A stretch of DNA of 11,685 bases from a candidate division WOR-3 bacterium (GTDB lineage: Bacteria > Hydrothermota > Hydrothermia > JBDRYB01), in NCBI GenBank assembly GCA_049969615.1, contig JBMFOM010000066.1, positions 1 through 11,685 of the forward strand, given 5' to 3'. This document shows positions 271 to 10,421 of the stretch, in pieces. Positions within the stretch are counted from its first letter, which is position 1; every line of letters starts with the position of its first letter. The notes under the pieces were generated by a model, which saw only the letters and a program-made list of their open reading frames with translations, ran no database searches and was not told the origin of the DNA. The translations under genes were made by a program, and so were the position numbers.

Positions 271-846
271 CTATCCTTTACCTTTCCCCCTGACGGTTAT
301 TGGAACGCCCTCCCTGCACAAAGGGCATTCCTCTGGCTTCCAAGCGATCATGTCTAGCCTGAGGGCCGAGAGGACTGGGACCCCAAGGTCTTTTCCTCCG
401 GACCGGTCAACCAGCACCCCCACCCCAACGACATGGCCGCCATCCCTTTTTACGGCTTCAATCGTATCCAGAATAGAGCCTCCAGTGGTCATAACATCGT
501 CCACGACCAGGACGCGCTTGCACATTATGGGGAATTCGCGCCTGAAGACCCTTCCCTTGCTCCCATCGGGGGGCAACTCCGCATAGGCCGCGCCGATGCC
601 CATGATCTCAGCCAGGGCGAATGCCACGAGTATGCCTCCGGTTGTTGGCCCGGCTATTATCTCGGGGTTCAACCTTCTGACATCCTCGGCTATGAGGGAG
701 AGCAATTTTCTCGTCAGATCCGGGCTTTCCAGAACCCTGAACTTCTCAAAATAAGCGTCAGAGTGCAGGCCGGATGTGAGTAGAAAATGGCCCCTGAGCA
801 AGGCCCCGCGCCTCTCAAGCTCATTGAGGATCTCGTCCATATTCAT
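271..846 (-). CDS. pyrE: Orotate phosphoribosyltransferase
   Basis: GHFLLTSGLHSDAY N-terminal motif, PRPP-binding loop VLVVDDVMTTGGS, LVDRS and a C-terminal CPLC tail. Start could be ATG 846 or ATG 840. Confidence 0.95.
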   Translation of the reverse strand: MNMDEILNELERRGALLRGHFLLTSGLHSDAYFEKFRVLESPDLTRKLLSLIAEDVRRLNPEIIAGPTTGGILVAFALAEIMGIGAAYAELPPDGSKGRVFRREFPIMCKRVLVVDDVMTTGGSILDTIEAVKRDGGHVVGVGVLVDRSGGKDLGVPVLSALRLDMIAWKPEECPLCREGVPITVRGKGKG

Positions 847-912
847 TCATCAGGGGTTTCAAATCCACCAACCCCCGGCCCCTCAGGGTCGCGTGAGGGT
901 TTCGGCCGAACC

Positions 913-1071
913 CTAGCCCTTCTTCGGAGTCGGAGGCATTGGCGCCTTCAGGGGACTGATTGTAAGCGCGCCCTCGTTTCTCTCCGAGGCCAGGATCTTC
1001 GGCTTTTCATAAGGCTTACGCACCCGGTCCTTTATCCGGGGAACCCTTCTATCCTTATCCTCTTCTGACAT
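913..1071 (-). CDS. 52-aa peptide, putative RiPP-precursor-like (YxxPxI/L leader)
   Basis: ATG at 1071 preceded by AAAGGAAAGCT (SD-like AGGA, 5-nt spacing). Translation MSEEDKDRRVPRIKDRVRKPYEKPKILASERNEGALTISPLKAPMPPTPKKG fills the ssrA-pyrE gap. The ORF-track start at 1131 lies inside tmRNA. Confidence 0.7.
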   Translation of the reverse strand: MSEEDKDRRVPRIKDRVRKPYEKPKILASERNEGALTISPLKAPMPPTPKKG

Positions 1072-1092
1072 AGCTTTCCTTTTTGCGTCCAA

Positions 1093-1427
1093 TGGAGGCG
1101 GGGGGATTCGAACCCCCGTCCAGAGACCCAACCCGCAAAGCCCTACACGCTTAGCTCGCCCTCATTCCTTCCGGAGCCGGGCGAGCAAGCCTCCCGGAAG
1201 GTTTTGCCCCTTTATCTGACCGGGCCCACGGGGCAGGGGTCCGGCGACCCCGGATTTATGAGGCCCCTCTGGGAGGTCCGGGGAACATCCCAGGGAACCA
1301 CGCCCTTCAGTTAGGCGTACGCGTATGCCTTTTCGGCAGTTGTATCTTGCCGCTTTTTTAACGGGGTGACGGCTCCCCGGCGTGCGCCTCGTCGGGTTCG
1401 CTGTCCCTGTCGAGACCAGTCGCCCCC
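1093..1427 (-). ncRNA. ssrA: tmRNA, one-piece, 335 nt, CCA not encoded
   Basis: 5' GGGGGCG pairs with 3' CGCCTCC-A with the G3-U alanyl determinant. T-arm GGGGG-TTCGAAT-CCCCC, CTCGAC motif near the 5' end, internal tag ORF. Confidence 0.97.
1311..1337 (-). other. tmRNA tag reading frame AEKAYAYA*
   Basis: Resume context ATACAACT-GCC after the first pseudoknot region; GCC GAA AAG GCA TAC GCG TAC GCC TAA. Confidence 0.85.
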
Positions 1428-1441
1428 AAACTAAGGCCTAT

Positions 1442-1470
1442 ATAATACTGGTTTTGCCGGGCAAAATCAA
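1442..1470 (-). promoter_or_regulatory. Putative sigma70-type ssrA promoter
   Basis: TTGATT (1470-1465), 17 nt, TATTAT (1447-1442), ending 14 nt upstream of the mature tmRNA 5' end. Confidence 0.6.
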
Positions 1471-3025: not shown

Positions 3026-6000
3026 ATGGCAGGATATAAACCGAAAAACAAGGTGAGGTTTGTGACCGCGACCTCGCTGTTTGATGGGCATGATGTTTCC
3101 ATTAACCTGATAAGGCGATTACTGGTTGAGGCCGGCGCTGAGGTCATCCACCTCGGCCACAACCGCTCCGCGGGGGAAATAGTTGATGCCGCAATCCAGG
3201 AGGACGCGCAGGCAATCGCGGTATCCTCTTATCAGGGTGGCCACATGATGTTCTACAAATACATGCGCGACCTCCTAAACGAGCGCGGGGCCAGCCACAT
3301 AAGGATATTCGGTGGTGGCGGAGGGGTCATAATTCCAAGAGAGATAAAGGAGCTCGCTGAATACGGGATAAGGATATACTCACCAGAGGACGGGCACAGG
3401 ATGGGGCTTTCTGGGATGATTGACGAAATGATGGAGAAATCGGACTTCTCCACGACCGAGCTTCCCGACGATGGCTTATACGAGAGGCTTAAGGTAAGGG
3501 ACCACGGCGCGATCGCGAGGCTGATCACCCTGGTGGAGGAGCTTCCGGAGGGAACTGAAAAGGAGACGGTTCTCAAAAGGGTTAAGGCCATCCAAACAAA
3601 ACACGCGCCAGTAGTCGGCATAACCGGGACCGGCGGTGCGGGAAAAAGCTCCATAACCGATGAGCTGGTCTGGCGGATACTGGAGCACTGCCCCGATAAA
3701 ACCGTGGCCATCATATCCGTTGATCCGTCCAGAAAGAAGACCGGAGGTGCCCTGCTTGGTGACAGGATAAGGATGAATTACATTCAGGACCAGAGGGTCT
3801 ATATGCGCTCCCTTGCGACCCGCGGAGCCAAATCCGAACTCTCAAGTGCGACGCGGGATGCCATAGAAGTCTGCAGGGCCGCTGGTCTTGACCTGGTTTT
3901 CGTTGAAACCGGAGGCATAGGCCAAGGGGATACGGAGATAACCCAGGTCTCAGATATATCGCTCTATGTTATGACGCCTGAGTATGGGGCATCCCTGCAA
4001 TTGGAAAAGATAGACATGCTGGACTACGCGGACATCATCGCTATAAATAAGTTTGAGAGGCGTGGGGCGTGGGAGGCCCTGCGGGATGTCCGAAAGCAAT
4101 TCAGGCGCAACCATAAGATAGAACATTCTGTGCCAGACGATGACCTGCCCGTTATAGGGACAATAGCCAGCCGCTTCAACGACATCGGGGTGAACGCCCT
4201 CTACAGCCTCGTGGTAGAAAAGATCAGGGAAAAAACCGGCCAGGAAATTGATCCATCGGCCAGATATTCAAAGGATTGGCTGGACCGAAAGGACTACACC
4301 ATCATACCCAGGGAAAGGGAAAATTACCTGCGAGAAATAGCGAAAACCGTCCGGGAATACAAGAGCCGCGGCATGGAGCAGGTAGCGCTGGCGCGCAGGC
4401 TCTATCAGCTGGAGGGAGCGCTCAGCGCGGCACAGGAAAACGGCCTCAGCAAAGAAGTAATAAGGGCGCTTGAGGAGCTCAGAAATGAGTGTGAGACCAG
4501 GCTCTCACCAGAGGCAAAGAACCTTTTGAATTCCTGGAATCAAATAGTCAAGCGTTACTCAGCCGAAACCCTGACCATAAGGGTTAGGGACAGGGAGATA
4601 ACTCACGAGCTAATCACCAAGACCCTCTCTGGAACGAGAATACCAAAGGTGGCGCTCCCTAAATACGAGGATTATGGTGAGCGTTTGAAATACCTGTGGC
4701 TGGAAAACCTGCCCGGATATTTCCCCTTCACAGCCGGCACATTCCCACTGAGAAGAACCGAGGAGGAGCCGCGGCGCCAGTTTGCTGGCGAGGGGGGGCC
4801 GGATCGCACCAACAAGAGATTCCATTATCTGACCAGGCACGACCCAATGAAACGGCTCTCGGTCGCTTTTGACAGCCCGACCCTCTATGGCGAGGACCCA
4901 GCCGAACGCCCAGACATATATGGCAAGATAGGCGAAGGTGGGGTGAGCATATGTAGTCTTGATGACATGAAAAAGATGCTGGCGGGTTTTGACCTCTGTC
5001 ACCCGTTGACAAGCGTGTCAATGACAATAAACGGCCCAGCGCCGATAATACTGGCCATGTTCTTCAACGCGGCCATAGAGCAACAAACGGAGAAATTCCG
5101 AGAGGAAAATGGCCGGGAGCCAACCGAGGCAGAGCGTGAGGAGATAAAGAACTGCACCCTCCAGACGGTCCGCGGAACGGTCCAGGCGGACATACTCAAG
5201 GAGGACCAGGGCCAGAACACCTGCATATTCTCAATAGACTTTGCTCTCCGGCTCATGGGCGATGTGCAGGAGTATTTCATCCAAAAGGGTGTCAGAAACT
5301 TTTATTCCGTGAGCATAAGCGGTTATCACATCGCGGAGGCCGGCGCTAACCCAATAACCCAGCTGGCTTTTACGCTGGCGAACGGGTTCACTTATGTTGA
5401 ATATTATCTGAGCCGGGGCATGAACATAGACGACTTCGCACCGAACCTCTCGTTCTTTTTCTCCAACGGGATGGACGCGGAATACTCTGTCCTGGGCAGG
5501 GTTGCCAGGAGGATATGGGCTGTTGCCATGAGGGAGAGATACGGCGGGAACGAGCGCTCTCAGAAGCTCAAGTATCACATCCAGACCTCGGGCAGGAGCC
5601 TGCACGCGCAGGAGATGGCCTTCAACGACATAAGGACGACCCTGCAAGCGCTCGTGGCCTATTATGACAACTGCAACTCCCTGCACACGAATTCCTATGA
5701 CGAGGCGGTCACAACCCCAACTGAGGAGTCAGTGCGCAGGGCGGTGGCCATCCAGATGATAATCGCCAGGGAGTTCGGTCTAGCCAAGAACGAGAACATA
5801 TCCCAGGGCAGTTTCATCATGGAGGAGTTGACCGATCTGGTTGAGGAGGCGGTTCTGACGGAATTTGAGCGCATATCCGAGCGCGGGGGGGTCCTCGGAG
5901 CCATGGAGCTCGGTTATCAGAGGGGAAAGATACAGGATGAATCAATGATCTATGAGCTCAAGAAGCACTCGGGCGAACTTCCCATAGTTGGGGTCAACAC

Positions 6001-6280
6001 ATTCGTTAATCCGGACATAAACCCGGATGAGTTTATTCCCCAGGACATACGGCTCGCGAGGGCAACCGAGGACGAGAAGCGCGCGCAGTTGCAAAACCTC
6101 AGGGCCTTTCAAGATAGAAACCGCAATAAGGCAACCGAGGCCCTTGCCAGGCTGAAAAAAGTTGCCCGCGAGGGCGGCAACATATTCGCGGAGCTCATGG
6201 AAACCGTGAAATACGCCAGCCTCGGCCAGATAACCCATGCGCTCTATGAGATAGGGGGCAAATACAGGAGGAACATGTAG
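3026..6280 (+). CDS. icmF: Fused isobutyryl-CoA mutase / MeaB-like GTPase
   Basis: N-terminal B12-binding domain (FDGHD, SSYQGGH), P-loop GTGGAGKSS with DPS, GDRIRM and NKFE, then the mutase barrel ([44 protein letters not shown]); 1084 aa. Confidence 0.96.
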
Positions 6281-6285
6281 ATAGA

Positions 6286-6315
6286 TTGCCCACGAACCCT
6301 GCCATGCCTTATATT
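6286..6315 (+). promoter_or_regulatory. Putative promoter, leaderless geometry
   Basis: TTGCCC, 18 nt, TATATT, then 6 nt to ATG 6322. Confidence 0.55.
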
Positions 6316-6321
6316 TTAATT

Positions 6322-7116
6322 ATGAGCAAGAGAGTTGGGTTTTTGTTTTTCGCCGTGCTTGTGGGGACCTCGTGCGACGAGCGCGGTCTCGCTGGTAGTC
6401 CGCTGATACACCTGAAAGTGGAGGAAGGCGGCGCCGCGCTCACCGTGAGCTGGTATAATGTCGTTGGCGCTGAACGTTATCAGCTTTGGATTGATGGGGT
6501 CAAGGTCTATGAGGGGAACGACACATCCTATTACCTGACAATACCTGCCCGAAAGATAAAAACCATCGCCATCGGCGGGACAGAGAGCACAACGGACGAG
6601 CTTGACCTCTCCGCTGTTACGGATACCGTGGAGGAGATATATGAGCGCGACGGCGAGGGGGTCTCTGCCTTGGGATTCACTGGGGAGGGCAAGTTTGTTC
6701 TCTACGCCCTTTCTGACACCGCAAAAGACGACAATTTCAGCCTTTATCTTGACGATTTCCGCATGGATACAACTAAACCAGATTCCATACGCATGGTCTC
6801 GCCAGACTTCAACGCCTTCGGCGAACCCTTCAACGAGCACAAAACCCTGTTCGCAAGGTGGGGCCCGGACAGCCTGGTCGCGCCGGACACTCTCTCCTAT
6901 CAGAATAACTATTCGCACGTGCTCAAAAAGGATTCGGTATATGCGCTCTGGCTTGATACTGATCACAACGGCTGGGGCGATGGCCACAGCTTTGACTATT
7001 TCGTAAAGGTCAAGATCCTGGCCGAGCCGGACTCGACGGGAAAGGTAACATTCCAATACTGGTTCCAGAAGATCGGTGGACTCAGGTGGGTTCCCGAACC
7101 CACAGAAGAGGAATGA
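6322..7116 (+). CDS. Hypothetical lipoprotein (264 aa)
   Basis: MSKR + hydrophobic stretch + lipobox-like VGTSC. FN3-like segment LTVSWYNVVGAERYQLWIDG. Stop overlaps the mltG start (ATGA). Confidence 0.8.
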   Translation: MSKRVGFLFFAVLVGTSCDERGLAGSPLIHLKVEEGGAALTVSWYNVVGAERYQLWIDGVKVYEGNDTSYYLTIPARKIKTIAIGGTESTTDELDLSAVTDTVEEIYERDGEGVSALGFTGEGKFVLYALSDTAKDDNFSLYLDDFRMDTTKPDSIRMVSPDFNAFGEPFNEHKTLFARWGPDSLVAPDTLSYQNNYSHVLKKDSVYALWLDTDHNGWGDGHSFDYFVKVKILAEPDSTGKVTFQYWFQKIGGLRWVPEPTEEE

Positions 7117-8869: not shown

Positions 8870-10261
8870 CTAGGGGCTACAATCGCGGTGGCCTGATGAG
8901 GCTTCTCTCTCCTTCAGAAACGCCCTCACCGCGGCCAAAGCGGATTTTTTGGTCTTTATCTTTCCCTCGGCCCTGAGGTCGTCAATCTCATCAAGTATCT
9001 CCCGGAACAAAGGCCCGGGCTTCAATCCCAGGGCAATCAGGTCGTTGCCCGTGAGCAATCTGGGTTCTTTCTTCTTTTCCCTCTCCATATCCTCAATGAA
9101 ATCGTGCAGGGATTTGGCCAGGATTAGGTGCGACACAACGCCCTGGTGGGAGAGCATAGAACTCAGGGCATCCGCGTATGTCAGGATTACTATGGGAAAG
9201 GCCCATTCCCCTGTCCTCCTGAGAAACCGGTTCATGGCCCTCCTAGTGGGGCCCTCGCCCTGGCCAAGGAAGTGCGGGTGCATATGATTCGCTATAAGCA
9301 ACACGAGCGCGTCGGCCTCTTCACCGCTCATCCTTAGCCTCCTGGCTATCCTCCTGGCCATCTTGGCACCCAGGGCATCGTGGCCATAGAAGTGAACCTC
9401 ATCGCTTTCCTCCTGGTATGTGTGCGGTTTTCCAATGTCGTGAAGCAGGGCCGCGAGGATGAATACTGCTCTAAGGGATGGATTTTCCAGGACCGTTAAG
9501 TGCCTCTTGTAGTGTACAAATGGTGTTATCTCAATGTTCCACAGAACCCCAGAGGAAACGGCCGCCGTGGACATGGAGTGGTGGAGCAGGTTGTTCCCGC
9601 CCCAGTCCGCGTCCGTGTCCAGGAGCTCCGGTAGGATGCTAGGCAGGACTCCGGCGTCCCAGGATACCCGGAGCGCCTCAGCCAGGCGCTGACCCAAAAG
9701 GAGCAGTTTGAGCTCAAACCAAATCCTCTCTGGAGCAACGTTTTCAAGGCCTCTGGTCTCCTCTTTGATCCAAGAGAACGTTTTGGGTTCAACCGAGAAA
9801 CCCAGCTCTGATGCAAAACGGAATGCCCGAAGGCACCTGAGGGGATCAGCCCGGAGGTTCTCGCGGGAGAGGGCACGGATGATCCTATCGCCAAGATCAC
9901 CGAGTCCGCCGGTTGGATCAACCAGCTTGCCACTGGGGCTCACGGCCATCGCGTTTATCGTGAAATCCCTCCGGGCGAGGTCTTGCATGATGTCCTTGCC
10001 CTGCCTGGCGACAACATCAACCCAGGCATCCCCGGCTATAACCCTTACCACCCCATCGTCCAGGGGAACAGCAGGAACGCGCCCCAGAGCCACGGAGAGC
10101 CCATTGGCGACGCGCTCGGCGTGGCCCGGTACCACCACATCCCAGTCCTTGACAGGCCTACCCAAAAGGGCATCCCTAACCGCGCCGCCAACCAGGAACC
10201 ACCCGCGAGGCAGGAATTTGCTTCCGGGTATGGATTGGACCAGGGATTTCAGATCGGACAT
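8870..10261 (-). CDS. Class II tRNA nucleotidyltransferase (CCA/poly(A) polymerase family, probably CC-adding type) with HD domain, 463 aa
   Basis: VGGAVRDALLGRPVKDWD, DLARRDFTINAMA, DPLRCLRAFRF, ERIWFEL, ALLHDIGKP, LLTGNDL..LGLKPGP. The ORF-track start at 10387 lies inside the MITE. Confidence 0.92.
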   Translation of the reverse strand: MSDLKSLVQSIPGSKFLPRGWFLVGGAVRDALLGRPVKDWDVVVPGHAERVANGLSVALGRVPAVPLDDGVVRVIAGDAWVDVVARQGKDIMQDLARRDFTINAMAVSPSGKLVDPTGGLGDLGDRIIRALSRENLRADPLRCLRAFRFASELGFSVEPKTFSWIKEETRGLENVAPERIWFELKLLLLGQRLAEALRVSWDAGVLPSILPELLDTDADWGGNNLLHHSMSTAAVSSGVLWNIEITPFVHYKRHLTVLENPSLRAVFILAALLHDIGKPHTYQEESDEVHFYGHDALGAKMARRIARRLRMSGEEADALVLLIANHMHPHFLGQGEGPTRRAMNRFLRRTGEWAFPIVILTYADALSSMLSHQGVVSHLILAKSLHDFIEDMEREKKKEPRLLTGNDLIALGLKPGPLFREILDEIDDLRAEGKIKTKKSALAAVRAFLKEREASSGHRDCSP

Positions 10262-10267
10262 ATATAA

Positions 10268-10296
10268 ATTATAACACATTTCCCGCGCAGAATCAT
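10268..10296 (-). promoter_or_regulatory. Extended -10 promoter, leaderless geometry
   Basis: TGtTATAAT with the perfect -10 at 10273-10268, 6 nt before ATG 10261. ATGATT at 17-nt spacing. Confidence 0.7.
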
Positions 10297-10301
10297 GTAT
10301 T

Positions 10302-10421
10302 GAAACCCATGAAAAATCCCGGTTTGGCCTTCGTACATCTCCGGGAGCCTCATCATAGTTCCTTCGGTCAAAGTGCTCCTGGTCCAAACCAACAAGTTAT
10401 TGCTACTTTATCAGGGGTCTC
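10302..10421 (-). mobile_element. MITE-like element family 1, copy B (120 bp, inverted relative to copy A)
   Basis: Same TIRs as copy A. Flanked by direct repeat GTATT (10297-10301 and 10422-10426). 101/120 positions identical to copy A by manual alignment. Confidence 0.8.

Follow-up and report, generated by a model that had tools for sequence, protein, structure and literature searches.

A putative small basic protein of the candidate division WOR-3 lineage encoded directly behind the tmRNA gene ssrA

The window, by which we mean the whole 11,685-nt stretch of DNA analysed here (contig JBMFOM010000066.1 of a candidate division WOR-3 bacterium), carries on its minus strand the tmRNA gene ssrA, a 52-codon open reading frame (ORF) and a pyrE-type gene, in that order and separated by short spacers (Table 1). 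An earlier note on this DNA, made from the sequence alone, had described the ORF as having its own SD sequence and starting 22 nt past the tmRNA discriminator, and these coordinates were confirmed, with the ATG at 1071-1069 (21 nt lie between it and the discriminator), the SD-like AAGGA at 1081-1077 and the stop codon at 915-913. The Rfam model RF00023 places the tmRNA at 1090-1427, with 154.3 bits and an E-value of 1.5e-61 over model positions 1-374 of 374. The tmRNA gene ends in ...CUCCA, the discriminator A being base 1093, and because this end runs directly into UUG, the 3′ CCA of the tmRNA is not encoded.

Table 1. Features of the minus-strand unit containing ssrA, the small ORF and pyrE, with their coordinates in the window
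Feature	Position	Strand	Basis
Sigma-70-type promoter-like site (TTGATT, 17 nt, TATTAT)	1442..1470	-	Consensus match only
ssrA, one-piece tmRNA	1093..1427	-	ARAGORN; tag read AEKAYAYA
3′ trailer/spacer, 21 nt, with SD-like AAGGA at 1081-1077, 5 nt before the ATG	1072..1092	-	Sequence
ORF, 52 codons plus stop, putative small basic disordered protein	913..1071	-	Homologues, alignment, codon-position GC; no predicted fold
Spacer from ORF stop to pyrE start, 66 nt	847..912	-	Without terminator, attenuator-like structure or U-rich tract
pyrE-type phosphoribosyltransferase, last gene of the minus-strand unit	271..846	-	PF00156

The tag that ARAGORN reads from the tmRNA closes in YA, the usual ending of tmRNA tags being LAA. 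Elsewhere on the minus strand (8870-10387) lies a gene for a nucleotidyltransferase of the CCA-adding type, with a PolyA_pol head, RNA-binding and HD domains, which is the kind of enzyme needed by a tmRNA without an encoded CCA. The product of the pyrE-type gene falls short of the curated cut-offs in the NCBIfam pyrE models, scoring 135 bits against TIGR01367 (pyrE_Therm) with its cut-off of 150 bits, and its relatives carry the name orotate phosphoribosyltransferase. On the plus strand, the region 1672-1712 contains a promoter-like sequence (TTGAAA, 18 nt, GATAAT) that extends to 1701, and the ATG of an aminotransferase gene (1710-2921) follows after 8 nt. No SD-like stretch was found in the 30 nt upstream of this gene, and its mRNA may therefore be leaderless. 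Further along the same strand, 3026-6280 encodes a 1084-residue protein in which a B12-binding domain is fused to a MeaB-type GTPase and a methylmalonyl-CoA-mutase-type domain, an architecture that we take to be IcmF-like, and it is followed at 6286-7116 by a 276-codon ORF without a match in Pfam or NCBIfam. Read from an internal Met, the latter begins with a hydrophobic stretch ending in Cys that resembles a lipoprotein signal, and a 246-codon ORF without family match lies antisense to it (6316-7056).

The site preceding ssrA (1470-1442) is the sole promoter-like match that a consensus scan found on the minus strand upstream of the ORF and pyrE. From this site to pyrE, the same simple scan of the minus strand returned no promoter-like and no terminator-like sites, in line with the earlier observation that no evident terminator separates ssrA from the ORF; it does mark sigma-70-like sites for both ssrA and the divergent aminotransferase gene. 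The scan gave no terminator match 3′ of pyrE, and a plus-strand reading frame entering from the left edge of the window stops at 145, which is taken to be the end of a convergent gene. The minus-strand unit therefore comprises ssrA, the ORF and pyrE. Judged from the sequence, the ORF is probably co-transcribed with ssrA, and the proposal that it is expressed from the ssrA transcript agrees with this architecture, in which neither a promoter nor a terminator intervenes and in which, for at least one contig besides the window, the ORF again comes after the tmRNA T arm.

The length of the ORF does not by itself indicate a gene. In dinucleotide-preserving shuffles of the 246-nt spacer between ssrA and pyrE, an ATG-initiated ORF of at least 52 codons appeared on this strand in 304 of 5000 cases, with any start codon on this strand in 658/5000, and on either strand with any start in 1172/5000. 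ORF length alone is not significant, and it is conservation that makes the gene real. These frequencies (6% for this strand, 23% for either strand with any start) favour the alternative that there is no gene here and that the region is no more than the 5′ UTR of pyrE or the trailer at the 3′ end of the tmRNA precursor, the reading frame being a by-product of conservation at the RNA level; also in its favour, protein databases show intact ORFs only, and the ORF comes with no family, fold or expression evidence. The GC content by codon position argues against it, as the ORF frame (0.55/0.45/0.66) resembles the genes of the window (0.55-0.64, 0.33-0.46 and 0.61-0.70 for the three positions) and none of the other frames of the ORF region fits their pattern. 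The RNA itself shows no unusual structure either, since the trailer folds with a z-score of -0.94 (30 of 200 shuffles were at least as stable), and there is no Rfam match. Two other frames were considered and rejected, namely a 72-codon version starting at TTG 1131, which overlaps the tmRNA and the upstream frame of which differs between contigs, and an antisense ORF at 787-1068 on the plus strand, which lacks a family match and has the wrong codon-position GC. Within the ORF, a 6-bp hairpin at 984-1002 resembles a terminator solely on the plus strand, in antisense orientation, where it would have no gene to terminate; the chance expectation for the region scanned is 2.1 sites of this sort.

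The remaining evidence on the coding nature of the ORF comes from its relatives. A word-indexed search returned three of these next to the window's own protein (4/4 candidates), and an exhaustive HMMER search of 1.84 billion cluster representatives of all lengths gave a single protein at E ≤0.001 (P0005, 1.6e-11), from which the family appears to be narrow, without a detectable fused form. With a five-sequence profile, 12 clusters (90% identity) were recovered among 38 candidates, the window's own included, with E-values of 1.9e-28 to 5.0e-15. Three N-terminal extensions were trimmed by script, after which the set comprised 11 distinct mature sequences, 49-54 aa in length, with P0007 in its trimmed form identical to P0006. 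The alignment comprises nine of the 12 members, as P0003, P0007 and P0011, which carry the miscalled N-terminal extensions, were left out. Twenty columns are invariant among the nine (M1, R8-I13, D15, R16, K19-P24, R31, N32, L36, P47 and P49 in the numbering of the window peptide), and they outline a family block, RRVPRI.DR..KPYEKP, within the conserved residues 8-32, followed by a Pro-rich basic tail at residues 40-52. Replacements within the block are mainly conservative (K/R, E/D, I/V, L/V and S/T). The reading frame, its length and its start hold down to identities of 55-60%, and changes in ORF length are in-frame; this argues against a non-coding region, although the homologues are all predicted proteins, so that only intact ORFs are visible (ascertainment bias).

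The miscalled extensions provide a view of the DNA upstream of the ORF in other contigs. P0007 is a 102-residue call in which residues 1-51 stem from reading through the DNA upstream, and this extension matches the 3′ half of the window tmRNA in three different frames, at 16/24 residues in one, over a 7-residue identity in another and at 17/17 residues over the T arm and acceptor strand in the third. Because the extension matches the tmRNA 3′ half, the ORF lies directly behind ssrA in the contig of P0007 too, which makes two contigs, with the window, in which it has this position. The tmRNA gene and the spacer thus show frame-shifting indels between these contigs, and the ORF in-frame length changes only, which is a further point against a non-coding explanation. 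Back-translation suggests that the spacer in the P0007 contig may be about 14 nt long, compared with 21 nt in the window, and that the extensions of P0007, P0003 and P0011 may each include a purine-rich AAGGA-like stretch before the Met. The shorter P0003 extension resembles another frame of the T arm and may, less securely, be read in the same way as that of P0007. With this evidence taken together, we consider it very probable that the ORF is a genuine protein-coding gene, and improbable that the region is merely a trailer or an untranslated region.

The family follows one bacterial lineage. Two of the peptide clusters have NCBI names as proteins from metagenome-assembled genomes of 'candidate division WOR-3 bacterium', and the nearest relatives of the window PyrE are from 'Candidatus Hydrothermia bacterium' (99%) and WOR-3 (87%), the organism name of the closest PyrE relatives being filed in the taxonomy under Caldifarciminia, phylum Caldifarciminota. 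The protein is, as far as the sequences recovered here indicate, known only from the WOR-3/'Candidatus Hydrothermia' lineage. A cultured WOR-3 isolate has been reported (PMC12285271). Peptide identities fall into tiers of 79-89% and 55-68%, and those of PyrE into tiers of 79-88% (plus one at 99%) and 55-68%, a comparison of tiers in which the genomes are unpaired. As the number, spread and identity tiers of the peptide clusters run parallel to those of PyrE, the peptide seems to be about as constrained as a housekeeping enzyme, and the ORF would be a core gene under purifying selection. We also scanned GTDB representative genomes with PyrE, keeping 80 loci of 105 relatives, all from other phyla and with 42-53% identity. 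None of these 80 pyrE loci has a tmRNA within 4 kb, the window being found as positive control, which suggests that the adjacency of ssrA and pyrE is lineage-specific; tblastn of four peptides against the same 80 loci yielded nothing convincing, with a best E-value of 0.029 among the matches listed (P0001). A genome scan with the peptide alignment gave 127 pattern matches, none of which was confirmed, and as both words used are narrow and missing from P0005 and P0009-P0012, this is not evidence of absence.

The translation of the ORF contains RKPYEKPKIL, Thr37 and the tail SPLKAPMPPTPKKG, exactly as had been described. The window peptide has a pI of 10.1 and a net charge of +6, and all 11 distinct sequences are similarly basic (pI 9.8-10.4, net charge +4 to +7) and lack Cys. 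Modelling with AlphaFold2 and the nine-row alignment gave a mean pLDDT of 65, a pTM of 0.19 and one four-residue helix, by which the protein is predicted to be a disordered chain. The tail has P-x-P-P in all members, and a run of at least three prolines (three or four) in 8/11 distinct sequences; that of the window peptide has PP only, with no longer run. Neither the window peptide nor any of the nine aligned members matched Pfam, NCBIfam, PHROGs or the PDB sequences, even at E-values up to 10. The YEKP stretch is, to our eyes, reminiscent of ribosomal protein bS21, the Pro-rich part of Pro-rich antimicrobial peptides and the TPKK end of the SPKK DNA-binding motif; these likenesses were dropped, as there is no profile match and TPKK is not conserved. 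A literature search for tmRNA or ssrA with a downstream small ORF found nothing relevant, and one for the string KPYEKP only an unrelated occurrence.

The earlier note had interpreted the peptide as the precursor of a ribosomally synthesised and modified peptide (RiPP), and had compared its YxxPxL-type motif with those of lasso peptide leaders, where YxxPxL is bound by the B1/PqqD-type RRE. PMC10368454 places YxxPxL at leader positions -17 to -12 of lasso precursors and Thr (rarely Ile or Val) at position -2, and gives the lasso ring as closed by Asp or Glu at core position 7-9, with B and C enzymes. Like these precursors, the WOR-3 peptides are short and predicted to be disordered, and counted from the C terminus, some 30 residues in, they have an invariant Y-x-x-P-x-[IV]. 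The Y-x-x-P part of the claimed motif is borne out in 9/9 aligned members, the strict form is not, as the window peptide reads Y-x-x-P-x-I and the members as a whole Y-E-K-P-[KR]-[IV], with Ile or Val where the lasso motif has Leu. The register depends on the cleavage site; with the Tyr taken as -17, position -2 falls on an invariant Leu and not on Thr, the position of Thr37 is variable (T/S/F/W/Y across the members), and core positions 7-9 are Pro, Met or Ala and never Asp or Glu. As described before, the last 15 residues of the window peptide contain no Asp/Glu, Cys or aromatic residues, and Asp/Glu are likewise missing from the last 15 residues in 9/11 distinct sequences, the other two having a C-terminal Glu only, at about core position 15. 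No genes for B (protease/RRE) or C (cyclase) proteins are present among the eight large ORFs of the 11.7-kb window, and there is no match to a lasso-leader model. With three defining features failing (Thr at -2, Asp/Glu at core 7-9 and neighbouring B/C genes), a lasso precursor was rejected; by its predicted sequence the ORF product is not one, having no Asp/Glu at core positions 7-9, a Thr37 that proved variable, and no maturase or RRE in the window. The earlier note, too, had judged a lasso peptide unlikely.

The wider form of this interpretation holds that the peptide belongs to an uncharacterised RRE-dependent RiPP class, in which the conserved N-terminal part would be a leader to which a PqqD-like domain from another locus binds, and the modified core would be the Pro-rich tail. 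It accords with a short, disordered peptide that is conserved over its N-terminal two thirds and varies more in its tail, with Y-x-x-P-x-[IV] in 9/9 aligned members and a conserved Ser or Thr followed by Pro or Gly at residues 39-40; both the ORF (12 clusters) and its YxxP (invariant in 9/9 aligned members), which the earlier note had suggested examining, turned out to be conserved. When the whole peptide was compared with the ESM Atlas, only unnamed clusters were found at 0.88-0.89, and the nearest named clusters were lasso-type (Subterisin and the DUF5972 lasso leader) at 0.77-0.78, which is chance level, as shuffled proteins reach 0.8 a third of the time. The leader part by itself (residues 8-38) had no usable match to a named cluster, and 0/9 members match a precursor or any other Pfam or NCBIfam model at E-values up to 10, though a new class would not match anyway. 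The surroundings also speak against a RiPP, because the eight large ORFs scanned in the window contain no RRE/PqqD, radical SAM or other maturase domains (the earlier note had also seen no maturase), and the transcription unit of ssrA, ORF and pyrE is surrounded by housekeeping genes. On one side, 10.6 kb are free of maturases, and on the other lie pyrE and the convergent gene; the sole unassigned ORF (6286-7116) resembles a lipoprotein. Nor does the peptide itself look like a modified precursor, as its tail lacks Cys and the usual reactive residues (with Asp/Glu absent from the last 15 positions in 9/11), and its conserved block of about 25 residues exceeds the usual RRE-binding motif, which is shorter. 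Finally, the clusters are distributed as those of a core gene and not as those of a patchy biosynthetic gene cluster. The claim that the ORF encodes an RRE-dependent RiPP precursor is not supported, given the lack of a maturase domain in the window, of a matching precursor model and of a patchy distribution; the wider RiPP reading is neither refuted nor supported, the short motif being its one positive sign, and we regard it as very unlikely.

A different possibility is that the peptide acts in cis as a leader peptide, so that polyproline stalling or coupling of the enteric pyr type sets the expression of pyrE and the peptide has no function in trans. Consecutive prolines slow ribosomes and require EF-P, and the P-x-P-P of all members, the runs of at least three prolines in 8/11 distinct sequences and the location of the ORF 66 nt upstream of pyrE without an intervening promoter are consistent with such a role. 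In attenuation of the pyrL type, the leader ORF is separated from the pyr gene by a U-rich pause region and an intrinsic terminator, and neither a terminator nor a U-rich tract was found between the ORF and pyrE. The segment 835-935 folds with a z-score of +0.80 (156/200 shuffles were at least as stable), so that neither it nor the trailer, at -0.94, has significant structure, and no PyrR or other Rfam element was found there, even at E-values up to 10. A pyrL-type leader was rejected on the absence of a terminator-like site and on this fold. The pattern of conservation also runs against stalling, as the invariant positions precede the prolines by 14-39 residues and variation is found right beside the prolines, the opposite of the pattern in known arrest peptides; the window's own peptide, moreover, has PP only. 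We therefore consider a cis-acting leader peptide an improbable explanation.

The best explanation overall, to which we would give about an even chance, is that the ORF shares a transcript with ssrA and encodes a small, basic and disordered protein specific to the WOR-3 lineage, with a binding partner that is an RNA or part of the ribosome. Transcription from the ssrA promoter would run through the ORF as the 3′ trailer of the tmRNA precursor, and probably through pyrE as well. Because the CCA is not encoded, the tmRNA 3′ end would have to be cut and extended; as is established for tRNAs, an RNase Z-type enzyme cuts the precursors of CCA-less tRNA-like molecules behind the discriminator, and a CCA-adding enzyme supplies the CCA afterwards. 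If the tmRNA is cut in this way, the remaining RNA would have its 5′ end about 21 nt upstream of the ATG and would include the AAGGA as ribosome-binding site. Through its invariant 25-residue block and its basic P-x-P-P tail, the protein would most likely bind, in extended form, to an RNA or ribosomal partner, and its supply would thereby be tied to that of the tmRNA. Of these steps, co-transcription and release by processing are what we infer from the arrangement of the locus, and the partner and the link to translation are a guess, prompted by the charge, the disorder, the long invariant block and the place behind ssrA. An RNA- or ribosome-binding role taken on its own is accordingly a tentative proposal that is more likely to be wrong than right, and co-transcription with a stable RNA need not imply a shared function.

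Parallels for this arrangement can be found in Escherichia coli. The tpr ORF, for a small protamine-like protein, lies 3′ of the tRNA on the tyrT transcript, and to our knowledge it has no known function. Table 2 of PMC3141248 enters it as 'part of tyrT transcript'. Like tpr, the WOR-3 ORF is very small, has a basic product and follows a mature stable RNA on its 3′ side, on what is predicted to be the same transcript and without a promoter of its own, and it has an arrangement of the tyrT-tpr type, with a 21-nt spacer in which the consensus scan marks neither a terminator nor a promoter, and an adjacency that recurs in the contig of P0007. It differs from tpr in that there is no sequence similarity, the stable RNA is a tmRNA and not a tRNA, the peptide is conserved across the lineage, and pyrE follows. 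In the E. coli ssrS-ygfA operon, the transcript of a stable RNA (6S RNA) extends into a protein gene downstream, and processing sets the RNA free; the downstream gene in that case is an ordinary enzyme, compared with a 50-residue peptide in WOR-3.

One specific version of the proposed RNA or ribosome binding is that the peptide, made from the 3′ trailer of the tmRNA precursor, serves as a lineage-specific accessory or back-up factor of trans-translation or ribosome rescue, binding the ribosome or the tmRNA via its invariant basic block and polyproline tail, with its synthesis coupled to the production of tmRNA and the maturation of the tmRNA 3′ end. The rescue factors ArfA, BrfA and ArfT are small, basic and largely unstructured, occur in one lineage each, have mutually unrelated sequences and are tied to tmRNA function, and we know of none whose gene adjoins ssrA. 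The resemblance of the WOR-3 peptide to these factors is one of kind only, in general traits, and does not extend to homology. Of the traits of the ArfA/BrfA type, the peptide has no Pfam match and its ORF has no sense-strand terminator inside it to give a non-stop mRNA. That the peptide is an accessory or back-up factor of trans-translation or ribosome rescue seems to us unlikely.

At present, the ORF product is best described as a small, conserved hypothetical protein. Should it indeed be produced, a phylum with hardly any cultured members would have an uncharacterised core family of small proteins, and the locus would be an uncommon instance of a tmRNA precursor that also carries a protein gene, tying the supply of a peptide to that of the ribosome-rescue RNA.
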